Assembly (NCBI GenBank): GCA_050949525.1
Contig: JBMNFW010000001.1
Location: forward strand, 527,890-591,889
Length of the DNA stretch: 64,000 nt
From: Patescibacteria group bacterium
GTDB taxonomy: Bacteria; Patescibacteriota; Patescibacteriia; Patescibacteriales; UBA12465
Reading direction: 5' to 3'
The notes below the pieces were generated by a model. The model had not been told where the DNA came from, ran no database searches, and saw only the letters and a list, made by a program, of their open reading frames with translations. The translations under genes and the position numbers were made by a program. Numbering within the stretch: position 1 is the first letter of the stretch; each line of letters begins with the position of its first letter. Positions 540 through 54,832 of the stretch are shown piece after piece.

Positions 540-3500
540 CTACTCTTTAATACATCGAATCGAATATCCATTAGGGCTATATTGTTTACCAGCAAGAGCC
601 ATATATTCACCAGCTCCGGTCCAATTGTTTTCATTAGCTAGAACATATCCTAAATCACTAGAGGTATCAGCAGAAAAAATAGTCCGTGTTCCAAGATCAG
701 TAAATCTTCCATCAGATTGTCTAACTCCAACTGGCAAAGCAGTAAATCCAAAATCATTAGTTCCAGTCCAAGGGATTATATCATTTGAAGAAGATTTTAA
801 TTTTTCTGCAATTTTCCAACAAGGAGTTGTGTGATTCCAAAAATCACAAGATGTTTCCCCGGATATTGTCTTAGCTAATTTAATCCAATCATTATCATTA
901 GGTATTTTCCAACCATTAGGACAAAGAGTAACTTGATCCACTGCTGAAACATTATATAGAACACCTAAAATTGGATAAGCCTGAAATGTAAAATTATTAT
1001 ATCCTATTTTATAATTCTTAGCGGCTAATAAATCATTTCCGTCATATCCAAGAACTCCGTAACTAGGTTTATTATCATTTGTTAAATTTGTATAGGTAGC
1101 ATTATCGTGAACAACTGGTAGATATCTTAAATTATCTTGAAACCAACATTGTTCTCCAATTTGAACTGTTTTGTAAATTTCCATATCTCTAGTATCTAGA
1201 ACTTTATCACCACAATCAAAAATTGGATCATCTTTAAAAAATTCAGTAGTTAGAACTATATTATCAGTAACATTATTTTCACCCAATCTAGTACTACTAG
1301 TATTATAATCAGACCACTTAGTAAAAGTATAATCAGAATTAGGAGTAGCAATGATTTCTTGATTATGTGATCCCCCAAAAGGAACTGTTATTACTATCTC
1401 ATCTTTTAGAGCTCCATCATCTAAACTAATCTTTCCACCATCACTACTTTTATAGGTGATAGTTTTAACATTATCTTCTATACAGCGAACTGAACCCTGT
1501 AACATTTTAGGCATTTTATGAAAGGACATTTCATTGATACCCATACAGGCAGCTACCCCTGGATTAAATAAGGCCAGAGTCCAAGCATTACTTGATGATT
1601 CACTGTCAATAGTCTTGGTATAGAAGCCAATTGCATGTCCTTGTAAATCAAAAGCTTCTGAAGTACCGGTCATTCCAGCTCTAAAACCAGCCGGAAGAGC
1701 CGAAAATCCCGAACTATTACTACTAGCATCCCAAGAAGTATCTTTCAAATCTTGGTGATTTTTACCTTTTATTAATTCTTCAAATTCTAGGATAGAAGGA
1801 AGATGCCAACCATCAGGACAAAGACCGCGACTATCCACTACTGCCGCAAAATTGTACAAAGCTCCATAATTATGACTTCGACTATTTTCTTCATCATTAT
1901 CATACCAACTATAGAGACCAGAGCTAGTGCTCATTATTTCATTTAAATCATTAGAGGTAGAGATAGGTGAACCATCATTGTATAAGGTAGTTCTCAGATT
2001 ATCCTGAAACCAACATTCATTATCTATTTCTACTGTTCGATATAATTCTCGATCTCGAGCATCAAAGAAAATATCACCACATACTTCATATTTTTTTACA
2101 AATTCAGCTGTGATAGTTATATTATCATCAATATTATCCAATCTATTACTACTAGTATTAAAATCAGACCATTTAACAAAATGATAGTTATCATTAGGGA
2201 TAGCAGTAATTTCATAAGGAGATATTTCTCCAAATGGAGCTGTAACTACTATTTCATCTTTTAAAATCTCATCACCTAAATGAATCTTTCCACCATCACT
2301 ACTTTTGTAGGTGATGGTTTTAGGACTATCCTGTAAACATCTAACTGGTATTTGAACTAGTTTATGAATCGCCTCTATAAAAAGTTCATCATCAGGTATT
2401 TCTGCACTAACCAAATCTTTAGTTAAAAGCATACCATAATTTCTATCTGAAAAATTATTTAAAGTAGTTCTTGTCCAGAAACTTGTCATAAATCCCTGAG
2501 AATCAAAAATATCCATTCTAATGCCAGTCGGAAGGGCTGAAAAACCAGTAGAATTATTACCATCACTCCAAGAGGTATCTCTGAAATCTTGAGAAATCCG
2601 ACCATCCATTAAATTTAAAAAATCCTGCTTAGACGGTAAATGCCAGCCATCAGGACAAGCATTTACTGCTGCTCCCCAATTATATAAAGCACCATAATTA
2701 TTATTCCGACTATTAGCCTCGTCATTATTATACCAACTGTATAAACCATAATCACTATTAGGATCAAATGTACTAAGAACATCATATACATCATAATCAA
2801 CTGGTGTAATAGGAATAGGTGAACCATCATTGTATAAGGTAGTTCTCAAATTATCTTGAAACCAACATTCATCATCAATTTTAACTGTACGATAGATTTC
2901 ACCATCTCTCTCATCAATGAAGTCATCACCACAGATCCATTCTTTAACTGATGATCCAGAAGAACTAATTGGTAATAATGGTAAAGGTAAAGCACTTTCT
3001 TCAGTTTGATCGTTTCTTGTACTAGTAATAGTGATAGTATTACCATAGATGATTTGATTATCAGAGGTAATGAGATAGGCTCGGAAGAAGGGATAAGTAC
3101 CAGGAACTAGATTTTGAATATTAAGAGTATAACTATTATTAGTATTAACAGTATCATCTATTACTTTATCTTCATAATCATCTAAACTAGGAACTAGTTT
3201 AATATCAGGTAATACAGAATAATCATAGATAATACCTCGTTCTTTAATACTAATATTATCAGGATTGATAATATTAGTAGTAATAGGGATAATATGAGAG
3301 AAATCTTTTAATTCTTCAATCTTCTGAGTTTCTAAGATAATATTATTAATATCATCATTATTATTATCTAATAATGTATCTTCTAAACCTAATTCTCTTA
3401 ATATATCTAGAGCTTCATGAGGACGACCTAAATAGATAGCTTCTAAAGTATCAGGATGGATGTAATAGGCTCGGCCATCTTCTTCGACTGATATTAATAT

Positions 3501-3734
3501 GACTCCAGCTAATCTTTCTGGGAACTTAGTAGCTAGAAATCTATCGAGATCAGCTTTAGATATACCTAGACCTAGTTTTTGCATAATATCGAAGGCTTCT
3601 CTAGGACTAGACAGAGACTTTCTTTCAGCAGGACTTAATACTCGACCAGGAGAGAAAGAAATATTAGCTAGAGAGAAAGTAATGGAAGCCAGGAATAATA
3701 GTCCGAGGCTTAGTATTAGAATTCGTTTTTTCAT
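540..3734 (-). CDS. Secreted multi-module lectin-like protein with three Fibrobacter-succinogenes-major-paralogous (TIGR02145-like) domains
   Basis: 1064-aa ORF with signal peptide MKKRILILSLGLLFLASITFSLA. Three modules, each a Listeria/Bacteroides-type repeat (TITYKSSDGGKI...Y.F.KWSD) followed by D.RD..Y.TV.I...CWF.DNL ... GALYN ... CPDGWHLPS ... GFSALP.G.R ... VRC. Confidence 0.8.
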   Translation of the reverse strand: MKKRILILSLGLLFLASITFSLANISFSPGRVLSPAERKSLSSPREAFDIMQKLGLGISKADLDRFLATKFPERLAGVILISVEEDGRAYYIHPDTLEAIYLGRPHEALDILRELGLEDTLLDNNNDDINNIILETQKIEELKDFSHIIPITTNIINPDNISIKERGIIYDYSVLPDIKLVPSLDDYEDKVIDDTVNTNNSYTLNIQNLVPGTYPFFRAYLITSDNQIIYGNTITITSTRNDQTEESALPLPLLPISSSGSSVKEWICGDDFIDERDGEIYRTVKIDDECWFQDNLRTTLYNDGSPIPITPVDYDVYDVLSTFDPNSDYGLYSWYNNDEANSRNNNYGALYNWGAAVNACPDGWHLPSKQDFLNLMDGRISQDFRDTSWSDGNNSTGFSALPTGIRMDIFDSQGFMTSFWTRTTLNNFSDRNYGMLLTKDLVSAEIPDDELFIEAIHKLVQIPVRCLQDSPKTITYKSSDGGKIHLGDEILKDEIVVTAPFGEISPYEITAIPNDNYHFVKWSDFNTSSNRLDNIDDNITITAEFVKKYEVCGDIFFDARDRELYRTVEIDNECWFQDNLRTTLYNDGSPISTSNDLNEIMSTSSGLYSWYDNDEENSRSHNYGALYNFAAVVDSRGLCPDGWHLPSILEFEELIKGKNHQDLKDTSWDASSNSSGFSALPAGFRAGMTGTSEAFDLQGHAIGFYTKTIDSESSSNAWTLALFNPGVAACMGINEMSFHKMPKMLQGSVRCIEDNVKTITYKSSDGGKISLDDGALKDEIVITVPFGGSHNQEIIATPNSDYTFTKWSDYNTSSTRLGENNVTDNIVLTTEFFKDDPIFDCGDKVLDTRDMEIYKTVQIGEQCWFQDNLRYLPVVHDNATYTNLTNDNKPSYGVLGYDGNDLLAAKNYKIGYNNFTFQAYPILGVLYNVSAVDQVTLCPNGWKIPNDNDWIKLAKTISGETSCDFWNHTTPCWKIAEKLKSSSNDIIPWTGTNDFGFTALPVGVRQSDGRFTDLGTRTIFSADTSSDLGYVLANENNWTGAGEYMALAGKQYSPNGYSIRCIKE
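2901..3713. repeat. Copy A of an 813-bp near-identical direct repeat (partner 21511..22323)
   Basis: Base-by-base comparison at constant offset 18610. I see only 5 mismatches (2991, 3579, 3585, 3634, 3690), all transitions. Confidence 0.9.
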
Positions 3735-3770
3735 ATGGTTTATGATTAATTGTATTATATGTATATTATA

Positions 3771-4733
3771 CTACTTTTGTGGGAAAAGATAAAGTAAAAT
3801 ATCTTCCATTTCATCATAAGTAGAGGCTAACATTAATTTAGATCTCAATTCAGCGGCTCCAGGAAAATCTTTAAAATACCAAACTAAATGCCCTTTAAAT
3901 TCATTAACACTAATATCACCATATTTCCCCTGTCGCTCTTTTAAATGCTTTAAAGCCACTTTAAATGATAACTCTTTCTCTTCTAAAGGAGAAAGATTAA
4001 TATATTGATCGGAAAAAACCCAAGGTCTTCCCAAAGCCCCTCGCCCAATACCAACCCCATCCACTCCTGTTTCTTTTTTTAAATCCTGAGCCTCATCTAA
4101 GCTCTTTACCCCACCATTAGCAAGAATAATTCCAGAAAAATATTTACGACTTTGCTTGATTACCTCAACATCAATCGGTCCAGAAAACAATTGATTCAAA
4201 GTCCGACCATGTATCATTAAAGCTGAAACTGGTAAATCAATAATATTTTTTAAAAAATCAATTAATGTTACTGAAAAAGCTTCGGTTCTCACTTTAATAG
4301 ACAAGGGTAAAGAAGTATTATCTAAAACCCGCTGAATAATCTCTCGACTTAATTTTAAATTAGACATTAATTTAGATCCAGCTCCTTGTTTTAAAACTTT
4401 TTTAACTGGACAACCAAAATTAATATCAATTCCATCAGGCCTTAACTCTTTCTCAATAAATTTAACGGCTGAAACAAAATGCTCTGGATTTGAACCAAAA
4501 AGTTGTACAATATAGGGGCGCTCTTTTTCTTGAAACTCTAATAGTTTTAAAGTTTTTTGAGAATCATAATGTAAGCCTGAAACCGACGCCATTTCACTAT
4601 AGACTAAATCAGCTCCAAAATCTTTACACACAGAACGAAAAACTGAGTCCGTAAACCCAGCTAAAGGAGCTAAAGCTAAAATAGCTGTATCTCCTTTCTC
4701 CTGTTTTAATTGCTGCCAAAAATTTAAAGCCAT
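3771..4733 (-). CDS. dus: tRNA-dihydrouridine synthase
   Basis: 320 aa. LAPLAGFTDSVFRSVCKDFGADLVYSEMASV and DINFGCPVKKV are Dus-family TIM-barrel motifs. Confidence 0.8.
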   Translation of the reverse strand: MALNFWQQLKQEKGDTAILALAPLAGFTDSVFRSVCKDFGADLVYSEMASVSGLHYDSQKTLKLLEFQEKERPYIVQLFGSNPEHFVSAVKFIEKELRPDGIDINFGCPVKKVLKQGAGSKLMSNLKLSREIIQRVLDNTSLPLSIKVRTEAFSVTLIDFLKNIIDLPVSALMIHGRTLNQLFSGPIDVEVIKQSRKYFSGIILANGGVKSLDEAQDLKKETGVDGVGIGRGALGRPWVFSDQYINLSPLEEKELSFKVALKHLKERQGKYGDISVNEFKGHLVWYFKDFPGAAELRSKLMLASTYDEMEDILLYLFPQK

Positions 4734-14247: not shown

Positions 14248-15258
14248 TTATTTTTTTAAAGCATAGACTCCTCGATCAACCAACACATAACGATCATCTA
14301 AAATTAATTCATTATGAACTGATCCCGGACTTACTTTTTTATGATTAAAACCAATTTCATTTATTTTATTAGTTATTTCAGTAAAATGAAGTGGTTTCTT
14401 TTCATTCTTTAAAACTAAATAAATTTTATCAGTAATTTTTTTAGGTCGAACTTCTACCCACTCTTCTTTACCCCATTTACCAAATTTATTAGCCCCAACC
14501 CCTTTAATAGTTTGCACTAAAGAATAAAGTGGTTTATTACGATTAATGATTTCAGCCCATTCCGGAAAAGTCTCATCTTTAAAAACTTTTTTCAAATCTA
14601 AGTCATCATTATTAGTCACTCTTTTTCTATTAAAAGAGAACCATTTAATGTCTTTAATAACATCAACTAATTCTTCAAAATATAAAGTTTTCTTAATGCG
14701 ATCTAATTGTATTTTAACCTCTTCAGCTAAACTTTCTAAATAATCAATGGCTTGATTTTTTAATTTAAAGAAAGGGAAAAACTTATCAGATTTATTAACC
14801 TGATCAATTTCATCATCTAGTAATTCAGATAAAACAAATTCTAAGTATTTTTTATAAGCCTTCCGATCATGCTTAATACCCTTTTCGGTTTGATAAGTTA
14901 AAACTGTTAAGATATCTAAAAGAAAATCCTTCTCCATTGCCCCGCCATGTTCTTCCAATAATTTATTCACCATTACTTTAAGAGATTCTAAATGAGCATC
15001 TAAATCTTCAATCTTTTTTAATTTCTTTAAACTAGATTGCTCGATTTGTCGTACTCGTTCTCGAGTTAAATTGTGAAGCTTACCAATCTCCTCTAAAGTT
15101 TGAGCTCGTTCACTCTCCAAAGAAAAACGACGAGTTAAAATATCTCTCTCTCGTTCTTGTAATTCAGAAAAAAGAACCTCGACTATTTCGACGGCATTCA
15201 ATTTAATCAATTCTTTATTCTTTTGATCCTGCAATAGATCTTTTAAAATGCTGTTCAT
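14248..15258 (-). CDS. Sigma-70 region-4-like HTH protein with C-terminal HARE-HTH-like domain
   Basis: 336 aa. N-terminal RERDILTRRFSLESERAQTLEEIGKLHNLTRERVRQIEQSSLKKLKK is a sigma region 4.2 pattern. C-terminal KKPLHFTEITNKINEIG...VHNELILDDRYVLVDRGVYALK resembles the RpoE-delta/HARE-HTH fold. No sigma region 2. Confidence 0.6.
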   Translation of the reverse strand: MNSILKDLLQDQKNKELIKLNAVEIVEVLFSELQERERDILTRRFSLESERAQTLEEIGKLHNLTRERVRQIEQSSLKKLKKIEDLDAHLESLKVMVNKLLEEHGGAMEKDFLLDILTVLTYQTEKGIKHDRKAYKKYLEFVLSELLDDEIDQVNKSDKFFPFFKLKNQAIDYLESLAEEVKIQLDRIKKTLYFEELVDVIKDIKWFSFNRKRVTNNDDLDLKKVFKDETFPEWAEIINRNKPLYSLVQTIKGVGANKFGKWGKEEWVEVRPKKITDKIYLVLKNEKKPLHFTEITNKINEIGFNHKKVSPGSVHNELILDDRYVLVDRGVYALKK

Positions 15259-15324
15259 ATATATTAAAACTTAAATTATAACTCTAACCATTTAAACATA
15301 TTTCAAATAATAAGTCAAGGGCTA

Positions 15325-15360
15325 TAAAATAAAGAGAGCAATCCGAAGATTGCTCTCTCT
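15325..15360 (-). terminator. Strong Rho-independent terminator after the S-layer-like gene
   Basis: 11-bp stem agagagcaatc / gattgctctct with loop cgaa, followed by a T-rich run on the minus strand. Confidence 0.8.
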
Positions 15361-15419
15361 TTCAATTTGTATTAAAGAAAAATTGATAAAAACTTAAAAG
15401 AAAAACTAAATCCTAAGGA

Positions 15420-18416
15420 CTAGTAGTTCTGGTAATATCCACTTCCAATTGGGAATTTATTTAATCCGAATCCATCAAATCCTCCTGCAAATTCCTCAAA
15501 GTTGCTTGTTCCTTCATCCCAGGTAACACCATTTGCATTTAAGTTTACACTGATTTTGAAGTTAACACCAGCAAAAGCATCAGTATTAGCTTTAAGTTTA
15601 AAGGTTTTAGTTTGACCAGCTTCAATTTGAGCAAGATTCTCATTACCATCTACTAAACTAAATTTCATTCCATTAGCATATGATTCACTTGAAGTAGTAT
15701 TACTATCATTAATATAGATATCTGAATTAACAGGAGTAGTAGTTCCATTTACTCTAAAATCTAAACTAGTAATAGATAAAACTCCAGTACCCTCAGCAGA
15801 AACATCAAACTCTAAATATTGCTGATCAGGTCCTTCTCCTTCTCCATCAATAAGACCTTTCTTAAAGGTAAATTTTGGATAAATCTTATGAACTTTCATT
15901 ATATTGAAATCAACAGGAAGAGCTGCTGCGATTGTTGTAGAAGCATTAATACTATTTAATTGTAATTGAATAGTATTAGATGCGACAGCATCCTCACCAT
16001 AGTTAGAGTTAAATAGACCCTTTACTACGATTTCCTTAGTTTGACCAGCAGCAATTTTTAGTTTATCGTTATTAATTTTAATAGTTGAAGTTTCAAACTT
16101 GCCATCATTATTAAATTTAGCATCACTACCTAATAAGGTTGTTCCGCTGTACACTTTAATGTCTTGTAATCTCTCATTAGTAATTGTTGATGTTGCGGTT
16201 GCAAGGAAAACAAGTTCAGTAATATTTGACTCGTCACCAGCTGAATGAATTTTAAACTTAGCAATTTCTCGCTCAGTATTATCAGCTAAAATTATTCCTT
16301 CAGCAGTAGTACCAGCTTTACTTACACTAATTTTAGCGGTTTTTACTATCTTAATTTTAGCACCAGAAACATTTCCATCAATTCCGGTCTTAACTATATC
16401 ACTATCTTTGAAAATTATCTTAACAGAATCACCTTTAATATCAAATTTAATATCTCCTGTTGATATATCGCTATCATCTATTATATCTACATAAATAGAA
16501 ATAACATGTTCCCCCTTGTTAACATCAAAATTTTCTAATTTTAAGGTAGGACTATCAAGATCATCATCTTCAAAATCTCCAATAGTAGTATTATCCATCT
16601 TAACTGTTACCTTTCTAATAGCAGTAGATGTAGCGGATAAAGAACCATTAAGATCAATGGTTAGCTCTTCAACTTCAATATCTTTTTCAGTCTTAATTTT
16701 AGCTTCTAAAGCTAAAATATTCTTAGTACCATAGATATATGAATACTCTCCTAAAGGTGAGTTTTGTGTTCTAGCGATAGTAATTTCACCAGACTCAATA
16801 TTTACCTCAGAGGTTGCATTAGTGTCTGCAAAAGAAACACCAAATCCGGTGGATTTTTCTTTTCCAATATTACCACTAAAAACTTTAGTATTTTTATCAA
16901 GTTGGAAAATTACACTTGGTGTAGTAGCTTCATATTTAGCAATAACATCACCTTTAATTTTTAAGGTTGCATCTCCATTTTCCTTTAATAATTCTAATCC
17001 ATTACCAGGGAAAGTGAAGTTGATGTATTTACCATTATAAGTAGCAGCATTAGAAACGATGTTACCATCTCTTTCTAATCTAATGTTAGAAATGGTTTCA
17101 ATTAAATCCTCGCTTCCATTATTCTTAAGCTCAACATTAGTTAAGATAACATCTCTATTAATGTTAGAAACTTTTAACTCACCTAATAAGATATTCTCAT
17201 CCCCAACCTTAACATCAAGAGAAGAGTCTTTTAATTCCATTTTTAATTCTGCTACTGTGTAATCAGTAAAGCTCATTAAATTACCCATGATTGGGAAAGA
17301 TCCAGAAACAGTAGCTCCGCTAGCTGAAACAGCTGAAGCAGAAGCAATTCCTAAAGCAGAATTTCCAGCTACTTTAGGAGTAGTAGAAAGAGCCTCAACT
17401 AAAATATCAACTGAAACAGTTTGCCCAGCTGGAATAGTTAGTATTGGACTAAAAACTAAAGTAGCTTCATCGCTAGAATTTAATTTTTTAGCACTGGTGT
17501 TAAGTTTTACACCATTTTTTTCAGCAAAAACTTTAAAATCATCATCACTTAAACCAATTCTCTTAACAGTAATAGAATCTACATAAGCAGTTCCATCGTT
17601 AGAAGCAGTGAGGTTAAGAGTAGTAAAAGGAATTCGAGAAGCTACATTTGGAACAGCCATAGAAGCAGGGGTTGCTGAACTTAAAGCAACAGTAACTCCT
17701 GAACCTTGGTCAGGTCTAACAGTATCTCCACTAATATTTTGAGCAACGTTAATAATATCAGTTTCAGATCCAGTGATATCACTACCACTAGGAGTGAAAT
17801 TATTGATAGTTAAAACGTTATCAAATTGAAATCTATTAGCTTTGAAAGCAACTTCATCTTCAATTAATCGATAGTCAGAACCATCGTAATAATAGATATT
17901 GCTCTCACCAGCTTTCTTTACTAAAGAACCCATTGGAACTTCACCAGAAGCCAAAGGAGATCCGATAGTATAGTTAATGAAGAAAGAGTCAGCTACGTCA
18001 ATTACTCTTTGTTCCCAATTGTCACCGTAAAGAGCTTTAGCATCTGCCGCAGTTTGTACCCATCTTAAAACACCGTTAGCTTCAACAGCGTATACTTTAG
18101 GATCGGTAGTAATCTTCACTAATTTGGTTCCCGGTCTAACAACTACGTTAGCTGCTAGAGGATAACTAGCTAATTCATCATCAGAAATAGTAACAACACC
18201 TGAGAAGTCACTATACCATGATTTATAGGTAGCTTCATTTGGGAACACATATCTTTTTCCGTCTTTTAGGTAATATACAGCTGAATGACCATCTCTTTTG
18301 ATTAAGTCTCCAGTTTGAGCTGCAGCTTTAGTAGCCATAGGAGCAGTTAAACCACTCATGACAACTACAGTCATTACCATGACAGAAGAAGCAAAAATCT
18401 TGCGTAATTTTGTCAT
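15420..18416 (-). CDS. Large secreted surface (S-layer-like) protein
   Basis: 998 aa with signal peptide MTKLRKIFASSVMVMTVVVMSGLTAPMATKAAA. Ala/Thr/Ser/Gly/Val-rich beta-repeat body with no Cys. Codon usage is visibly different from neighbours (GCT/GGT/ACT/GTT rich), and a strong terminator follows. Confidence 0.65.
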   Translation of the reverse strand: MTKLRKIFASSVMVMTVVVMSGLTAPMATKAAAQTGDLIKRDGHSAVYYLKDGKRYVFPNEATYKSWYSDFSGVVTISDDELASYPLAANVVVRPGTKLVKITTDPKVYAVEANGVLRWVQTAADAKALYGDNWEQRVIDVADSFFINYTIGSPLASGEVPMGSLVKKAGESNIYYYDGSDYRLIEDEVAFKANRFQFDNVLTINNFTPSGSDITGSETDIINVAQNISGDTVRPDQGSGVTVALSSATPASMAVPNVASRIPFTTLNLTASNDGTAYVDSITVKRIGLSDDDFKVFAEKNGVKLNTSAKKLNSSDEATLVFSPILTIPAGQTVSVDILVEALSTTPKVAGNSALGIASASAVSASGATVSGSFPIMGNLMSFTDYTVAELKMELKDSSLDVKVGDENILLGELKVSNINRDVILTNVELKNNGSEDLIETISNIRLERDGNIVSNAATYNGKYINFTFPGNGLELLKENGDATLKIKGDVIAKYEATTPSVIFQLDKNTKVFSGNIGKEKSTGFGVSFADTNATSEVNIESGEITIARTQNSPLGEYSYIYGTKNILALEAKIKTEKDIEVEELTIDLNGSLSATSTAIRKVTVKMDNTTIGDFEDDDLDSPTLKLENFDVNKGEHVISIYVDIIDDSDISTGDIKFDIKGDSVKIIFKDSDIVKTGIDGNVSGAKIKIVKTAKISVSKAGTTAEGIILADNTEREIAKFKIHSAGDESNITELVFLATATSTITNERLQDIKVYSGTTLLGSDAKFNNDGKFETSTIKINNDKLKIAAGQTKEIVVKGLFNSNYGEDAVASNTIQLQLNSINASTTIAAALPVDFNIMKVHKIYPKFTFKKGLIDGEGEGPDQQYLEFDVSAEGTGVLSITSLDFRVNGTTTPVNSDIYINDSNTTSSESYANGMKFSLVDGNENLAQIEAGQTKTFKLKANTDAFAGVNFKISVNLNANGVTWDEGTSNFEEFAGGFDGFGLNKFPIGSGYYQNY

Positions 18417-18559
18417 AATTTTGTTTAAAGCTATCTCTAAATATTATTATTAAATAATTATTTAAAGACAATGAAATTTAGGTTTCTCCACTAGTCTTAA
18501 TTCTAAATTAATTAAATCGGTCAAATATTCCTGAATAAATCGATCAGGATCCCGCTTCC

Positions 18560-18838
18560 CCGCACACTTTAATCAAAAAGCATGTTTCGGAAAAAATTAG
18601 CATGGGATAATTTTTCACCACTCCGACTCTTTTTAATCAAAGAGTGCGGAGAAAAGCTTAATCGATCTATAGTGAAAAATTTTTTCGATTAATCTTTTCT
18701 AGAATTTTAAAAAACTTGTAAAGAAACAATTTTGGTTTTAAACGTTGCACCCTTCCCCTCGGAAGTCGACCTTTCTGGTCACAACGAATCTCCTAAATGG
18801 AGATTGTTAGTTTTCCTTTTAGTAAAAAGAAAACTAAC
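18560..18838 (-). other. Cluster of stem-loops in a 440-bp non-coding spacer (candidate structured leader or small RNA)
   Basis: Hairpins at 18806-18838 (10-bp stem), 18787-18805 (7 bp) and 18621-18651 (12 bp with one bulge), plus a Y-shaped element at 18743-18786 (cgttg[gacc..ggtc][cttcc..ggaag]caacg read on the minus strand). 18560-18570 can pair instead with 18639-18649. Strand not established. Confidence 0.35.
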
Positions 18839-18857
18839 AAACCCCACTAAGATTTAA

Positions 18858-19682
18858 TTATTTTTTAAAGATTTTTAAAGATTTTTTTACCTCATCTAAT
18901 TTTTCTAAAGCTTCCGGATAAGCCCCATCAGAAAAAAGTTTTTCAATTTCTAAAATAATATCAGTCTCACTAACTAAATCTTCTTCTTTTTTAAGTTCCG
19001 GTTCAATAATTTCTTCTTCACTACTAGTAACTAAATCTTCAACCTCATCCTCTATTTTTACCTCCTCAACAATATCTATACTAAGCTCTTCTACTTCAAT
19101 TCCATTTTCCTCACTTAGAGAACTAGCTAGGATAATATCATTTTCCACTTCCTCTTCTTTTTTCTCTTCATCCTTTAAAGTATTCTTTTCCATTTTAGTT
19201 TTAACCTTAGAAATTTCACTCATAAAACTAGAGCTTAACTTTTCAACTTGAGCTTGATTCTCTTCATTATTAAATTCAGGATCCATTAAAACATTTAAAA
19301 TATCATGAGCATGATCACTAGCAAACTGAATAGAAAGCTTATCTCTTTGATTTTGAGAAAAGGTAGTATTCAATTTAGCTTTTTCACTAATAATTCGAGC
19401 AATGTATAAAGAATTATTAGGCTTAGAGTTTCTTAAAAATCCATTACCTAAAACCAAAGAAGTAACTACTAAAACAAAAACTCCCGCTACGACTAATAGT
19501 GGTTGAGAAAAAACGGCTATAAAATTCTTAAAATTAAAAGCTGAATAAGATTTAGAATTCTCGGCTGATTTAGTATTAGAAATTTGAGATAATAAAAGAT
19601 CTCGATTAGAACATTTAGTTTCTTCGGATAATCTAATACTCTTTAAAGTCTTTAATTGTTTTAATAATTCTTTATCTGTCAT
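18858..19682 (-). CDS. Single-pass membrane protein downstream of the ECF sigma (possible anti-sigma or regulatory partner)
   Basis: 274 aa with one TM helix (FIAVFSQPLLVVAGVFVLVVTSLVLG) and a highly acidic C-terminal half. Assignment is by position only. Confidence 0.35.
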   Translation of the reverse strand: MTDKELLKQLKTLKSIRLSEETKCSNRDLLLSQISNTKSAENSKSYSAFNFKNFIAVFSQPLLVVAGVFVLVVTSLVLGNGFLRNSKPNNSLYIARIISEKAKLNTTFSQNQRDKLSIQFASDHAHDILNVLMDPEFNNEENQAQVEKLSSSFMSEISKVKTKMEKNTLKDEEKKEEEVENDIILASSLSEENGIEVEELSIDIVEEVKIEDEVEDLVTSSEEEIIEPELKKEEDLVSETDIILEIEKLFSDGAYPEALEKLDEVKKSLKIFKK

Positions 19683-20523: not shown

Positions 20524-22344
20524 CTATCGCCCCCTCGGTCGCTCCTCAGCCAAATTTTCCATCGCTAATTCATCATCAGATATTTTTACACAACGAACAG
20601 AAAAAGCATTAGGATTAGTACGAGAACTAATCACATCCTTAATTTGAGACTCATCATTTAAAGACTCTAAAAAGACTACTCGATCACCAATAGTAAGACC
20701 GGAACCAGGACGACTAGCGGTCATATCACTATCACTCAATCTCATATTATCAAGCCAAAAATAAGCTTTCTCTCCTTTTTCAAAAAATCCATCTTCCGGT
20801 CCGTTATAATAACCACCGGGTAAAGCGGTAAAACCAATTGTATTACCTCCATCCCAAAACGGACTCTTGGATTTTAAAGCATAACCAGCCAATTCAAATC
20901 TAGTAACATTATTATCATCACCTATTGAAACAGGGACCTCTTCACCAACTAATCCCATTAACGCCACCCAATCACTATAAGTAGCCACTCTCCAGCCATC
21001 AGGGCAAATACTTCTTCTTACTCCTAAATTTAAATTTTCATTATTATCTATTATTAACATTCCATCATCTTGAGATAACTGATTACCTTGAGGTAAAAAA
21101 TGCTGACCAGCTTGAGGTGATGCAGACTGTTCCACAATATATAATAGCCGGGTATATAAGCCGCCATATTTTTTACAATTCTCTATGTCATTATCATAAC
21201 AATATTTTTCTACAACCCTCTCAGATGTAGCTATATTTTCAATTCTCCCGCCACTTGGTAACTCATCACCATTTTCTGGTAACATATCAATATCCCCCTC
21301 CTGATTATTTTCTGAACTATCCATCATTTCGCCAAAATTTAAATTTTCTCTAAACCAACATTGATCAATAATTTTAATATTATTATTGTCATCTATATTA
21401 TTATTGTCATCTGGTCCAGTAATAGGTTGATTGTCATCACCTATTAATGGCAAAACTCCACCTAATGTAGGTTTTTTTAATCCCTTAATTAAAACCGTCT
21501 TGTACACTTGACCATCTCTCTCATCAATGAAGTCATCACCACAGATCCATTCTTTAACTGATGATCCAGAAGAACTAATTGGTAATAATGGTAAAGGTAA
21601 AACACTTTCTTCAGTTTGATCGTTTCTTGTACTAGTAATAGTGATAGTATTACCATAGATGATTTGATTATCAGAGGTAATGAGATAGGCTCGGAAGAAG
21701 GGATAAGTACCAGGAACTAGATTTTGAATATTAAGAGTATAACTATTATTAGTATTAACAGTATCATCTATTACTTTATCTTCATAATCATCTAAACTAG
21801 GAACTAGTTTAATATCAGGTAATACAGAATAATCATAGATAATACCTCGTTCTTTAATACTAATATTATCAGGATTGATAATATTAGTAGTAATAGGGAT
21901 AATATGAGAGAAATCTTTTAATTCTTCAATCTTCTGAGTTTCTAAGATAATATTATTAATATCATCATTATTATTATCTAATAATGTATCTTCTAAACCT
22001 AATTCTCTTAATATATCTAGAGCTTCATGAGGACGACCTAAATAGATAGCTTCTAAAGTATCAGGATGGATGTAATAGGCTCGGCCATCTTCTTCGACTG
22101 ATATTAATATGACTCCAGCTAATCTTTCTGGGAACTTAGTAGCTAGAAATCTATCGAGATCAGCTTTAGATATACCTAGACCTAGTTTCTGCATGATATC
22201 GAAGGCTTCTCTAGGACTAGACAGAGACTTTCTTTCAGCAGGATTTAATACTCGACCAGGAGAGAAAGAAATATTAGCTAGAGAGAAAGTAATGGAAGCT
22301 AGGAATAATAGTCCGAGGCTTAGAAAAACAATTTTTTTCTTCAT
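20524..22344 (-). CDS. Secreted lectin-like protein, paralog of 540..3734, with one insertion-rich Fibrobacter-paralogous-type domain
   Basis: N-terminal ~270 aa are almost identical to 540..3734. The C-terminal part keeps DERDG.VYKTV, CWF.ENL, GGLY, CPDGWRV, GFTALPGG and VRC blocks, separated by long Asn/Asp-rich insertions. Start chosen by homology (MKKKIVFLSL); the track ORF has two more in-frame ATGs up to 22356. Confidence 0.8.
   Translation of the reverse strand: MKKKIVFLSLGLLFLASITFSLANISFSPGRVLNPAERKSLSSPREAFDIMQKLGLGISKADLDRFLATKFPERLAGVILISVEEDGRAYYIHPDTLEAIYLGRPHEALDILRELGLEDTLLDNNNDDINNIILETQKIEELKDFSHIIPITTNIINPDNISIKERGIIYDYSVLPDIKLVPSLDDYEDKVIDDTVNTNNSYTLNIQNLVPGTYPFFRAYLITSDNQIIYGNTITITSTRNDQTEESVLPLPLLPISSSGSSVKEWICGDDFIDERDGQVYKTVLIKGLKKPTLGGVLPLIGDDNQPITGPDDNNNIDDNNNIKIIDQCWFRENLNFGEMMDSSENNQEGDIDMLPENGDELPSGGRIENIATSERVVEKYCYDNDIENCKKYGGLYTRLLYIVEQSASPQAGQHFLPQGNQLSQDDGMLIIDNNENLNLGVRRSICPDGWRVATYSDWVALMGLVGEEVPVSIGDDNNVTRFELAGYALKSKSPFWDGGNTIGFTALPGGYYNGPEDGFFEKGEKAYFWLDNMRLSDSDMTASRPGSGLTIGDRVVFLESLNDESQIKDVISSRTNPNAFSVRCVKISDDELAMENLAEERPRGR
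21511..22323. repeat. Copy B of the 813-bp near-identical direct repeat (partner 2901..3713)
   Basis: See copy A; same orientation, offset 18610. Confidence 0.9.
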
Positions 22345-22409
22345 AGACATAGACATTTACTTAATTATAATTAACTATATGATCAATTATTGCATAAATG
22401 TCAATAAAA

Positions 22410-22438
22410 TTGACTTAAAAATCATTCTAAGTTAAACT
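22410..22438 (+). promoter_or_regulatory. Sigma-70-like promoter for the HTH gene
   Basis: TTGACT (22410-15), 17-nt spacer, TAAACT (22433-38), 14 nt before the ATG. Confidence 0.4.
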
Positions 22439-22451
22439 TAAAATTACTTTT

Positions 22452-22709
22452 ATGATTACTAAACCTAAAAAAATTGAACGTCAAATATGGCTCTCAGTTT
22501 CTGAATCAGCTAAACTAGCTGGGGTAGATAGTAAAACTATTAGACGAGCTATTAAAGCCAAAAATATTAAGTATAAAGTTTTGGGTAATCGTTATGCTAT
22601 TCGTCTTCAATCAGTAATCGATTTCGCGCATCATAACACTAAACTACGGAATAAATTTTACACCCAAGGCTTGGGACAATACATCGCTAAATTTAAAAAA
22701 GATTACTAA
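22452..22709 (+). CDS. Small helix-turn-helix DNA-binding protein (excisionase/MerR-type HTH)
   Basis: 85 aa. WLSVSESAKLAGVDSKTIRRAIKAKNIKY is an HTH_17-like pattern. Divergently transcribed from the second lectin-like gene. Confidence 0.6.
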   Translation: MITKPKKIERQIWLSVSESAKLAGVDSKTIRRAIKAKNIKYKVLGNRYAIRLQSVIDFAHHNTKLRNKFYTQGLGQYIAKFKKDY

Positions 22710-51161: not shown

Positions 51162-51463
51162 ATTTACTGCCCCAATTTCAAATCCTTAATCAATTTTAAG
51201 TCTTCCAGATTACTAATCTTCATTGATTTGGAAAAAATAGAGTAAAGATAATCTTCAATATATAAAGCTCGTTGAACTCGAGAAGAATGAAGATAATCAC
51301 TAGCTTGACCCTATTTACTGCCCCAATTTCAAATCCTTAATCAATTTTAAGTCTTCCAGATTACTAATCTTCATTGATTTGGAAAAAATAGAGTAAAGAT
51401 AATCTTCAATATATAAAGCTCGTTGAACTCGAGAAGAATGAAGATAATCACTAGCTTGACCCT
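51162..51463. repeat. Perfect 151-bp tandem duplication (51162-51312 and 51313-51463)
   Basis: The two units are identical base for base. Unit 2 is the last 49 codons plus stop of 51315..53471; unit 1 is a non-translated copy between that gene and the start of 50423..51160. Confidence 0.92.
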
Positions 51464-53471: not shown

Positions 53472-53539
53472 AAAAATTTTAATTAATTATAATAATATTA
53501 TTATACCACTAAAATAATAAATAATCAAACTAATGTATT

Positions 53540-54612
53540 AGTCCACGTCATTTTGGAAAAAAATTATTATTAACCAAATAATTCATCGGAGATACTAATT
53601 CAAGGCTCCAATGTGGTCTATCGGTATTATACCAAAGAAGCCAATCAATTAACAAATTATTAAAATCATCTAAATTATCAAAGTATTTTTCACCACTCCA
53701 ATCAATGAATTCTTCTTGAATAGTCCTATTAAACTTCTCAATATGACCCTGTTTGTATGGTCTACCTGGATAATTGAAATAATGCTCAATTTTTCTCTCT
53801 TCTAAGTATTTTTTAAAATAGAGATGGAATTCTAAACCATTATCAGTCTGAACAGCCTTAATATTAAAGGGCATGACTTCTTCTAATTTTTTAAAAAAAT
53901 CTTTAGCATTAGAGCTACTAATTCTGTTATAGGCATAAGCGAAAGCTGTTCGGCTAAAAGTATCAACAGCGGTAATAATATATCTCTTTAATCCATTGTG
54001 AAATCTAACAACAGTATCTATCTCTATTAAATCCCCAGGATTATTTACTTGTAATTCCTTAGGTTTTCTTTTCTTTTTAGTTTTTTTAATTTTTTTAATC
54101 TTACCAAAATGAGATATTTTCTGTCTATGATGATATATATCTTTATCTTTAATAATTCTACCTATCTTTGATTCTGAGTATATTGGTAAATTATTAATTT
54201 CACAAAATTTATCTAAAAATTTTTTAACTTTAGTTTTATCCATATTAGGACAAATCTCTAGTCTTAAACGTCTAATCTCTTTTAATATCAGAGGATGTAT
54301 TTCTCTTTTATTCTTGTTAATCCTAGCTTGGGATTTAGGATTGAGAGCTTCTATCTTGCCACCCCCTTCTCTAAATATTTTTTGCCAATTGTATAGGGTA
54401 GATTTTTTAACCCCAAAGGCATCAGTAGTGGCTTGAAGGCCATATTGCTTCCAAAATTCTAATATTTTGAGTCTTTGTCTAGCTTCTTTGGTAATCATAT
54501 ATTTTTGCTTAATTGCATCATTATATAATGTACCAAATCCGGGACAATTATAGTACTTAAACTTTATCTGCATACATTTTGGGCTTTTTATTTTCCAAAA
54601 TGTATCTGAACT
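53540..54612 (-). mobile_element. IS481-like (IS3/IS481 superfamily) insertion sequence, ~1073 bp
   Basis: Imperfect terminal inverted repeats AGTCCACGT-CATTTTGGAAAA (53540-60) and AGTTCAGATACATTTTGGAAAA (reverse complement of 54591-612). Possible 4-bp TSD TATT (53536-39 and 54613-16). Single DDE transposase ORF. Confidence 0.75.
53548..54573 (-). CDS. DDE (rve/integrase core) transposase, IS481-like
   Basis: 341 aa. N-terminal HTH (KKSTLYNWQKIF), then IEIDTV...ITAVDTFSR...VQTDNGLEF...YNTDRPHWSL. The stop lies inside the left IR. Confidence 0.85.
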   Translation of the reverse strand: MQIKFKYYNCPGFGTLYNDAIKQKYMITKEARQRLKILEFWKQYGLQATTDAFGVKKSTLYNWQKIFREGGGKIEALNPKSQARINKNKREIHPLILKEIRRLRLEICPNMDKTKVKKFLDKFCEINNLPIYSESKIGRIIKDKDIYHHRQKISHFGKIKKIKKTKKKRKPKELQVNNPGDLIEIDTVVRFHNGLKRYIITAVDTFSRTAFAYAYNRISSSNAKDFFKKLEEVMPFNIKAVQTDNGLEFHLYFKKYLEERKIEHYFNYPGRPYKQGHIEKFNRTIQEEFIDWSGEKYFDNLDDFNNLLIDWLLWYNTDRPHWSLELVSPMNYLVNNNFFPK

Positions 54613-54832
54613 TATTCAAAAAGAATTTAAAACTAAGGCTTAAAAATACCTTGCTTTACAAAGAAAAAATCTTGTGCTAAGCTAAAGATATTAAAAATAA
54701 TAAGTAAAACCTGTTTTAGGACTTAATCATAATGACTTTATTAAAACACTTAAATTATATCTACTATTATAAATTTAACTCAATTATAGTCTAATTTGGT
54801 CGTTTTATTATCCTCAAACAAGTAAAAAAAAT

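Follow-up and report, generated by a model that had tools for sequence, protein, structure and literature searches.

Two secreted FISUMP-family genes in a Patescibacteria genome share 813 bp of near-identical DNA at their 5' ends. On sequence comparison, this repeat is probably the 5' region of a small secreted FISUMP family that has been homogenised by recent, and probably repeated, gene conversion between old paralogs. It has well-defined boundaries, occupies at least three loci and recurs in independent assemblies. We infer that non-reciprocal conversion is the mechanism, that it is continuing, and that the shared part acts as an anchor plus spacer.

Extent and edges of the repeat

The window analysed here is the whole 64,000-nucleotide stretch of DNA. 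A base-by-base comparison of positions 2901-3713 with 21511-22323 bore out the initial annotation, which had described an 813-bp direct repeat of about 99.4% identity at a constant offset of 18,610; the match is gapless, with 5 mismatches in 813 bp. These mismatches fall at 2992, 3579, 3585, 3634 and 3690 (G/A, T/C, A/G, C/T and C/T, respectively). The last four positions had been listed correctly, whereas the first had been given as 2991 and was off by one. All five are transitions and, as had also been stated, only two alter an amino acid (S34N and A248V), the other three being synonymous. Chance is not a plausible origin for identity of this kind. The remaining direct repeats found within the window are 61-84% identical, except for one perfect 151-bp tandem duplication, and the pilin paralog pair is, as claimed, more diverged than the module (82% versus 99.4% identity).

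Both copies of this module lie on the minus strand, as do the genes that carry them, so that the module is 5' for each gene yet sits at the high-coordinate end of each open reading frame. Module copy A (2901-3713, minus strand) comprises codons 8-278 of gene A (540-3734, minus strand; 1064 aa), which continues into three FISUMP units. Module copy B (21511-22323, minus strand), the same 813 bp with the five transitions, comprises codons 8-278 of gene B (20524-22344, minus strand), counted from the MKKK start at 22344; this gene encodes 606 aa, or 610 aa if the start is at 22356, and carries one FISUMP domain behind the module.

Identity stops abruptly at both edges, in agreement with the initial annotation, with the added detail that 13 of the 21 bases adjoining the gene 5' edge still match in the same frame (MKKRILIL versus MKKKIVFL). 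At the gene 3' edge it extends through FIDERDG and takes in the first 11 codons of FISUMP domain 1, in line with the reported stop at the first block of the lectin-like domain. Upstream of the ATG, the match between A and B falls to chance level and the two sequences are unalignable. The proposal that the two genes have unrelated promoters holds to that extent, but the ~70-bp leader of gene A is itself repeated at other loci, and only the upstream region of gene B is private.

This leader, designated A-up (3735-3805, minus strand), contains TAGTATAAT, also encodes the last 11 codons of dus and may, from its sequence, be a promoter segment. It accompanies the module at the ydjM locus (L109, L013), at gene C, which is flanked by insertion sequences (L016), and in L001 and L015, and it is absent from gene B. 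The B-specific upstream region (22345-22451, minus strand) has TTGACA at ~22403-22398, and in assembly GCA_046128275.1 (L104) an IS481-like element is inserted there at ~22404. Beyond it, an 85-aa HTH_17/excisionase-type DNA-binding open reading frame (22452-22709, plus strand) lies divergently upstream of gene B and is kept in all B-locus contigs. Promoter and terminator scans gave counts of promoter-like sites near the shuffle means, the one clear feature being a terminator after the HU gene.

Module architecture and head domains

The module encodes, in order, most of the signal peptide, a Patescibacteria N-terminal domain, an Asn/Asp linker, an Ig/FN3-like domain and a Pro/Ser linker, followed by CGDDFIDERDG, the first 11 codons of FISUMP domain 1. 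The hydrophobic N-terminal signal sequence, MKKRILILSLGLLFLASITFSLA, is recognisable by inspection. Structure prediction returned a small alpha/beta domain, an Ig/FN3-like sandwich and a disordered linker. Such a predicted architecture would fit an anchor plus spacer, the term 'stalk' being a guess. The N-terminal domain (~75 aa), unnamed yet very widespread in Patescibacteria, is marked out by this locus as a candidate surface-retention module.

The C-terminal domains that had been described as lectin-like matched the Fib_succ_major/FISUMP family above cut-off in both genes, with the shared module 5' of them. The PF09603 (Fib_succ_major) profile scored 251.7 bits against gene A, over three stretches, and 80 bits against gene B (cut-off 33.9). 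TIGR02145 gave 252.8 bits for gene A, 84.8 bits for gene B and 62.9 bits for P0007, the product of a third module gene (cut-off 41.65). The three units of gene A occupy ~2082-2933, 1215-2081 and 540-1214 on the minus strand, an InlB-B-repeat-like spacer (Flg_new_2) comes after two of them, and the FISUMP domain of gene B has a long insertion after its first strand. The heads of A and B are only ~23-27% identical. Every FISUMP unit keeps the pattern CGD...(E/Q)CW...CP(D/N)GW...RC; by inspection, these are secreted proteins with conserved cysteines, a feature suggesting extracellular disulfides (PMC5758913). FISUMP-type motifs have been grouped in the C-type-lectin fold class, as CLec2 (PMC5758913), and a weak co-match of the heads to Lcl_C/DUF1566 was seen (E 1.8e-4). 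A search for homologs of the B head returned only truncated close relatives (P0243, P0244), which have no readable N-terminus.

The possibility that these heads are targets of a diversity-generating retroelement (DGR) was considered and rejected. The mismatches are not adenine-specific, the window contains no template/variable repeat, and no reverse transcriptase domain was found among the 41 window open reading frames scanned against Pfam.

Further copies and assembly support

The initial annotation had presented the module as shared by two genes and had called for a search for further copies. The shared 5' module stands, whereas the limit to two genes does not. A 742,870-bp contig from another sample, representing a near-identical strain, carries A (L093), B (L099) and a further module gene, the third, whose head is different again. 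On that contig, this third gene, E, is known as a protein only (P0007, 496 aa), in which a 100% identical module is followed by a new head after FIDERDG. L109, which codes for P0123, a member of the cluster, places this gene at the ydjM locus; identity there begins ~70 bp upstream of the ATG. A fourth head, in gene C (L016, from another sample), is located between two IS481-like copies, and there identity ends at window position 2945 and not at 2901. Exact-protein look-ups gave no record for gene A, gene B (two starts), the ECF sigma factor, the transposase (two starts) or P0007.

Because the repeat exceeds the short-read insert length, and some public contigs across it join mismatched flanks (L013, L014, L015), it might be an assembly artefact, with one real copy placed twice or a contig chimeric across strains. 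This is extremely improbable, however. The two copies differ at five sites, and the separate 742,870-bp contig also has both of them 18.6 kb apart. L098 reads from dus through the whole module into FISUMP unit 1 (at ~2x coverage), and L109 reads from ydjM through the whole module into head E, with unique flanks. Furthermore, at least 10 independent short-read contigs from different samples break in or at the module, both at the A locus (L094-L097) and at the B locus (L100-L103, L105, L108), as is to be expected where a repeat is really present in the genome.

The window also contains one insertion sequence outside the repeat (53532-54618, minus strand; transposase at 53548-54573). Its transposase has HTH and rve domains and scores 161.8 bits (E 2e-47) against NF033577, below the cut-off of 224; the element is accordingly termed IS481-like and is not assigned formally to IS481. 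Other assemblies have this element immediately next to module genes, on either the upstream or the downstream side. L016 consists of an IS copy, the leader with module and head C, and a second IS copy in direct orientation, and module genes in L015, in L104 and in L110, a sister-species contig from ERZ15185900, have the IS, or what is left of its end, beside them. These arrangements might suggest an IS481-like composite transposon that spreads module genes, the identity then coming from transposition of whole units and not from conversion. We regard such a transposon as highly improbable. The sequence read at A and B of the window, at their long-contig counterparts and at the E locus within L109 contains no IS; the identity between A and B starts and stops inside the open reading frames, so that whole genes have not been moved; and each locus has a different head.

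Probable gene conversion between old paralogs

Several observations indicate that the position of gene A is old. The gene order dus, a secreted gene with the same N-terminal motif, and rpsB is kept in L046 and L049, and in L019 an ortholog of gene A lies upstream of rpsB, tsf, PSP1 and gap; synteny at the A locus thus reaches other species. The proteins of the latter genes in L019 are 77-83% identical to those of the window, whereas the module is only ~44% identical. At the DNA level, the L019 module is 79-83% identical to those of L017 and L020, which come from the same sample though not necessarily from one genome, and ~67% identical to that of the window over a short stretch.

In the mechanism that we favour, the genes would be old paralogs at separate chromosomal sites of a ~0.74-Mb Patescibacteria genome, with diverged heads, and their front ends, silent sites included, would be kept near-identical by non-reciprocal homologous recombination between loci. 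The homogenised front end would comprise the signal peptide, the lineage-wide N-terminal domain, the Ig-like spacer, the linker and the first strand of the head. Conversion tracts would extend to the limit of usable homology. One end would fall close to the start codon or, at loci that also share the leader, 70 bp upstream of it; the other would fall where the FISUMP domain opens with its conserved CGDxxxDxRDG motif. Essential genes lie between the direct repeats A and B, so that products of exchange without crossover should be the only ones to persist. The initial annotation had made the same argument, which is sound as an inference: besides dus, cysS and tgt, a dozen genes lie between the copies. 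Its broader suggestion, a recent duplication or ongoing conversion that keeps a common N-terminus while the heads differ, is also supported, with non-reciprocal exchange as the best explanation.

Two features commonly expected of gene conversion are present. A tract of near-identity lies within otherwise diverged paralogs, and each copy keeps its own locus from one independent genome to the next (the window and the 742,870-bp contig both have A and B, and L109 has E). Selection at the protein level is unable to account for identity at silent sites (5 differences in 813 bp, against heads of 23-27% identity). Across at least three loci, tract boundaries vary, lying at 3713, ~3805 and ~3798 on the 5' side and at 2901 and 2945 on the 3' side. 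Differing tract ends at more than two copies imply several independent events within ~0.6% divergence.

An alternative scenario is a single recent graft or duplication to each locus shortly before the strains diverged, followed by ordinary mutation without ongoing conversion. The haplotypes at the B locus across samples (GGTAC, AGCAT, AACGT) form a nested series, the common haplotype GGTAC is present at every locus, and the B modules of the window and of L099 have 2 differences (0.25%), which is inside the range of strain differences over whole alignments (0.03-0.5%). Each of these points would be in line with a single graft. We nevertheless consider it unlikely, given that the differing boundaries at three or more loci need several events. 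In addition, residue 248 is V (T at 2992) in B of the window, B of L099 and E of the 742-kb contig, and A in gene A, E of L109 and P0122; the E locus thus has two alleles at site 2992, and each of them occurs at other loci too. When L099 and the window are compared with one hypervariable gene excluded, 2 of the 6 differing sites in ~16 kb fall in the 813-bp module of B (binomial P ~0.03). The module may instead have been grafted, in this lineage alone, onto FISUMP genes that are unrelated, which would again be a non-reciprocal transfer.

When copies are pooled, mostly from possibly chimeric short-read contigs, four gametes are seen for 3690 versus 3585 and for 3690 versus 2992. Allele sharing between loci comes mostly from short-read metagenome contigs, possibly chimeric at the SNP level within the repeat; on long contigs it consists of the V248 common to B and E, where E is represented as a protein. 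One homogenising event, with ordinary mutation from then on, could account for the nesting of the B haplotypes.

Gene A itself gives a visible sign of active recombination in the FISUMP module genes: other samples contain a two-unit, 780-aa allele, and the three-unit and two-unit alleles are joined within an identical stretch. Between the window and L093, the head of gene A has three differences, located in a region where its own units align poorly.

Beyond homogenisation, the module might act as a recombination handle for programmed or selected swapping of heads and promoters, in the manner of a cassette, with inter-locus recombinants common in the population. Three contigs have the expected form, namely the B upstream region, module and A head (L014), IS, A-up leader, module and B head (L015), and ydjM, A-up leader, module and A head (L013). 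L014 switches from B type to A type within 23 bp of the module edge, and this chimera would be impossible there if the B module of that sample had the B alleles of the window. We consider swapping of this kind doubtful. All three are 1.8-2.9-kb short-read contigs across a repeat longer than the insert, two of them from sister JGI samples; L014, if a crossover product, would be an A x B deletion junction that removes cysS and should be lethal; and the window open reading frames scanned include neither silent cassettes nor a dedicated recombinase. The contigs that suggest head swapping are therefore all short and possibly chimeric. L013 and L014, in which different upstream regions are joined to the two-unit gene A head, were dropped as new loci or head swaps, the simplest reading being chimeras across the repeat from sister JGI samples.

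An extended form of this idea includes expression control. In a sister species, a G9 tract lies between the -35 and -10 boxes, and IS481-like insertions occur just upstream of putative promoter elements. IS insertion points correspond to window positions 3798 and 22404. It is a tentative possibility that leader and module together serve as a handle reshuffling heads behind promoters, with the IS481-like insertions and the G9 tract as on/off control, thereby producing surface variation at the population level. If true, and on the assumption of an episymbiotic lifestyle, the candidate phyla radiation would include a system that varies the cell surface, either to attach to hosts or to evade phages.

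Implications for Patescibacteria surface biology

Genomes of Patescibacteria are tiny, and on present knowledge these bacteria spend their lives attached to other cells. For these reasons, their surface proteins are the likeliest determinants of host range, and we know of almost none that has been characterised. One such tiny genome nevertheless repeats the same 0.8-0.9 kb, almost unchanged, at no fewer than three sites. One front end is kept, presumably for export and anchoring, and lectin-like tips are varied, which points to active homologous recombination. Selection acting on a shared anchoring interface would fit the near-identity of the module. From a practical standpoint, the repeat breaks short-read assemblies, and metagenome-assembled genomes are thus likely to contain too few FISUMP module genes, or chimeric ones.

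Comparison with known systems

A literature search found no report of gene conversion in Patescibacteria surface genes. A constant anchor with varied binding tips is nonetheless a familiar bacterial design, and the module genes are comparable to Helicobacter bab and Leptospira LigA/LigB. In H. pylori, gene conversion takes place between the babA, babB and babC loci; intragenomic recombination makes chimeras and moves the regulatory 5' region, and strains vary in which gene occupies each locus (PMC4552749). The module genes resemble this system in being surface adhesin-type paralogs at separate chromosomal loci, with homologous end regions and a divergent ligand-binding part. However, bab genes have N-terminal and long C-terminal homology around a variable middle, whereas the module genes share the 5' part only and have a variable C-terminal FISUMP head. 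Unlike bab, they lack a CT-repeat phase switch in the species of the window, their conversion is deduced from sequence and not seen experimentally, and the organism is a Patescibacteria bacterium instead of a proteobacterial pathogen.

Leptospira LigA and LigB have identical N-terminal parts, in which Ig-like domains act as a stalk, and C-terminal parts that are ~34% similar (PMC7912936). The module genes likewise encode surface proteins with identical N-terminal and diverged C-terminal parts. In contrast to the Lig proteins, which are lipoproteins with Big domains throughout and occupy two loci, they combine a signal peptide, the unnamed Patescibacteria domain and one Ig-like domain with heads of a putative C-type-lectin fold, at three or four loci at least. 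DGR target proteins have DUF1566/Fib_succ_major variable regions of the C-type-lectin fold, and DGRs are common in CPR bacteria (PMC5758913). The heads described here belong to the same family and are presumed, like those regions, to bind ligands at the surface and to be open to diversification, but their diversity would come from paralogs and recombination and not from mutagenic retrohoming.

Two further systems provide partial parallels. The dispersed copies of tufA/tufB and of rRNA operons are homogenised by RecA-type gene conversion over the whole gene, whereas in the module genes only the module would be affected. Rhs/CDI polymorphic toxins combine a constant N-terminus with a variable C-terminus, the tips being toxins accompanied by immunity genes. 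They resemble the module genes in that the delivery or anchor part stays constant and the tips can be exchanged; here, the tips are lectin-like binding domains and not toxins.

Extent and edges of the shared module

A base-by-base comparison at an offset of 18,610 showed that window positions 2901-3713 and 21511-22323 differ solely at 2992, 3579, 3585, 3634, and 3690. All five differences are transitions, of which three are silent by codon and two alter a residue (S34N and A248V). The initial annotation had described the repeat correctly in offset, transitions, amino acid changes, and four of the five positions, while its 2991 should read 2992. The module forms codons 8-278 of two intact minus-strand ORFs: gene A (540-3734, 1064 aa) and gene B (20524-22344, 606 aa from the start codon used in public gene calls). 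Both ends are as abrupt as first reported. At the 5' edge, identity stops within the signal-peptide codons, where 13 of the next 21 bases agree in frame (MKKRILIL versus MKKKIVFL), and upstream of the start codons the two genes are unalignable; at the 3' edge, identity ceases after FIDERDG. Four of the differences fall within the first 135 bp, and the remaining difference-free run of 586 bp would be expected in ~1% of random placements. Also within the module, an imperfect palindrome of 40 nt (3244-3283 and 21854-21893) whose stem is perfect over 13 bp covers the most conserved peptide, NPDNISI; it may be no more than a by-product of how Asn and Ile are encoded in a genome rich in A+T.

Downstream of the module, both genes encode Fib_succ_major/FISUMP domains (PF09603, TIGR02145). 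Gene A carries three, with an InlB-B-repeat-like spacer after two of them, and gene B a single one with a long insertion behind its first strand; the two heads share just 23-27% identity. Their earlier description as lectin-like is fair at the family level only, because the literature on diversity-generating retroelements (DGRs) places the FISUMP motif with DUF1566 in the C-type-lectin fold class (PMC5758913). The unit number of gene A varies, with three FISUMP units in the window (1064 aa) and two in other samples (780 aa). The junction of the 780-aa allele, which lacks one unit, falls within the shared stretch ECWFQDNLRTTLYNDGSPI, an identical 19-residue segment (gene A head, 540-2933; P0126), a configuration that indicates unequal crossover inside the gene.

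Support from independent assemblies

The window has a G+C content of 31%, and its ordinary housekeeping genes include dus, cysS, tgt, gyrB, eno, pgk, tpiA, and rny. From a near-identical strain there is a 742,870-bp contig (JGI Ga0534105_00092), one protein of which is labeled "Patescibacteria group bacterium" by NCBI. This contig contains both genes A and B in the same arrangement; its identity to the window is 99.97% across 14.7 kb at the A locus (L093) and 99.5% across 20.3 kb at the B locus (L099). Two other contigs read continuously through a module, one from dus into FISUMP unit 1 (L098) and one, at 25x coverage, from ydjM through another copy into that copy's head (L109). In different samples, at least ten contigs assembled from short reads terminate within the module or at its edge, either at the A locus (L094-L097) or at the B locus (L100-L103, L105, and L108). 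Contigs typically break in this way at a genuine repeat that exceeds the insert size. The second long contig, the read-through contigs, and these breaks establish the repeat as real, and an assembly artefact is very unlikely because of the independent assemblies.

Two further features of the setting deserve mention. Of the ~102 positions at which L099 and the window differ over 20 kb, about 96 lie at 15,000-19,000, the region of a 998-aa gene without family assignment (15420-18416, minus strand; initially termed S-layer-like) that is hypervariable among near-identical strains and for which the public gene call is 919 aa. An 85-aa HTH_17/excisionase-type ORF (22452-22709, plus strand), divergent from gene B, is kept in all B-locus contigs.

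Additional module genes

The module is present in more genes than the two first described. P0007 (496 aa), recovered by a profile search and recorded on the 742,870-bp contig, has a 100% identical module followed, past FIDERDG, by a different FISUMP head. P0123 belongs to the same protein cluster and is encoded by L109 (10001-11473), where this module gene (head E) lies immediately downstream of ydjM; its identity to gene A already begins at window 3805, ~70 bp before the ATG. Gene C, with a fourth head (L016, 1172-2653), is flanked by two direct IS481-like copies, and its leader and module are identical to those of A down to window 2945 only. In L001, an apparent tRNA 3' end precedes the leader. 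At least four heads are present in this gene family within the population of the species.

The sequence suggests that recombination placed leader and module directly at the dus terminus. In related contigs, dus homology stops at ~3818. The shared leader itself supplies the last 11 codons of dus (3771-3805; DILLYLFPQK plus the stop codon).

Evidence for probable interlocus gene conversion

Interlocus gene conversion is the favored explanation for the near-identity of the modules, judging from the sequence comparisons. Protein-level selection cannot be the cause, because silent sites are homogenized in the module while the heads are near saturation. The chromosomal position of gene A is old: in L046 and L049 a gene for a secreted protein sharing the N-terminal motif likewise stands between dus and rpsB, and in L019 an ortholog of gene A adjoins rpsB, tsf, PSP1, and gap. 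Although these neighbors are 77-83% identical in protein, the L019 module is only ~44% identical to ours. Positional orthologs of the B and E loci were sought in other species, and none was established.

The few variable positions appear at more than one locus. At sites 3690/3634/3585/3579/2992 (a dash marking a site beyond contig reach), the haplotypes are GGTAC for window A, AACGT for window B, AGCAT for the B locus of L099, GGTA- for the B loci of L101 and L102, AGTAC for the A locus of L098, and GGCGT for L001. Pooled copies contain all four allele combinations at two site pairs, with the short-read contigs being possible chimeras within the repeat. B and the E of the long contig both carry V at residue 248, whereas gene A and the E copies of L109 and P0122 carry A; the long-contig support for allele sharing consists of this B/E V248 only, with E known there only as a protein. 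Outside the hypervariable gene, L099 differs from the window at six positions in ~16 kb, two of which fall in the module of B (binomial P ~0.03, that gene left out). The B haplotypes are nested, and ordinary mutation following one homogenizing event would account for them as well. The identical tracts end differently in each pair (3713-2901 for A/B, ~3805 to ~2901 for A/E, and ~3798 to 2945 for A/C), and several separate events must therefore have occurred within ~0.6% divergence. Within one sample of a more distant lineage, module genes share 79-87% DNA identity among themselves, and match ours at ~67% in DNA over short stretches only or ~45% in protein; this pattern would fit concerted evolution and also lineage-specific expansion.

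The initial argument against crossover is sound, as A and B are direct repeats with dus, cysS, tgt, and other genes between them. These genes would be lost in a reciprocal exchange, and persistence is therefore expected of non-crossover products only. Three short contigs (L013, L014, and L015), two of them from sister JGI samples, join the upstream region of one locus to the head of another. As a crossover product, L014 would represent the lethal A x B deletion junction. These contigs are probably chimeras rather than proof of head swapping, although the switch in L014 falls at most 23 bp from the module edge.

Mobile elements and other mechanisms

Spread of module genes by an insertion sequence (IS) is suggested by the IS-gene C-IS layout of L016 and by IS copies or remnants adjoining module genes in L015, L104, and L110. 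In the window, the IS481-like element occupies 53532-54618 on the minus strand (transposase 53548-54573), and copies or parts occur in L015 (1-1088), L016 (12-1110 and 2659-2782), L104 (10653-10783), and L110 (1870-1945). In other assemblies, the same IS lies ~60 bp upstream of module-gene start codons, with insertion points that correspond to window 3798 and to ~22404, the latter on TTGACA upstream of gene B; a sister-species module gene has a 77-bp IS-end remnant after its stop codon. A one-T difference in L015 and L016 extends the transposase frame into the leader. Nevertheless, such spread cannot account for identity that starts and stops inside the A and B ORFs, and neither gene has an IS within the sequence read.

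The window element adjoins a beta-propeller gene whose 3' end is overlapped by a perfect 151-bp tandem duplication (51162-51463, two copies 100% identical), which may have arisen recently or through misassembly. A DGR was excluded by the mismatch pattern and by the lack of a template/variable repeat and of a reverse transcriptase among the scanned window repeats and ORFs. Upstream of P0009 in a sister species (L110, ~295-345), a nine-G run stands between TTGACC and TGATATAAT in a low-GC genome; it could be a slipped-strand phase-variation tract, its length being read from a contig of only 0.8x coverage.

Domain organization of the module

The whole module has no match in Pfam or NCBIfam. An AlphaFold model (51 sequences, mean pLDDT 70) comprises a confident small alpha/beta domain (gene residues ~35-120), an Ig/FN3-like sandwich (~131-238) with weak Foldseek matches to FN3/Ig domains, and a disordered Pro/Ser linker. 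The ~75-aa N-terminal domain, at window ~3375-3632 in gene A and in the same region of gene B, has no Pfam or NCBIfam model. Its motif, LLQVE..GEAWYV..YYLGRP.DAF.IMR.LGLGI, was recovered by an exhaustive search in over 2,000 cluster representatives (50% identity), mostly directly behind a signal peptide; its fusion partners in Patescibacteria are trypsin-like and subtilisin proteases, CAP domains, nucleases, and Lcl_C. Few proteins have the full module together with its Ig-like part (~13 representatives below 1e-30). We infer that the module may provide export together with an anchor and spacer, and the N-terminal domain is a candidate new surface-retention domain family.

Comparison with known systems

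The finding is solid and biologically sensible, and it is not surprising; its value is that it points to a recombining surface-protein family and an uncharacterized anchor-like domain in the candidate phyla radiation. A literature search found no description of such a case in this lineage. Comparable surface-protein genes are known elsewhere, and to our knowledge this case is new for the lineage. The closest known cases are the bab paralogs of Helicobacter pylori, in which interlocus intragenomic conversion makes chimeras and shifts 5' regulatory sequence among genes (PMC4552749), and LigA/LigB of Leptospira, whose N-terminal parts are identical while their C-terminal parts are just ~34% similar (PMC7912936).
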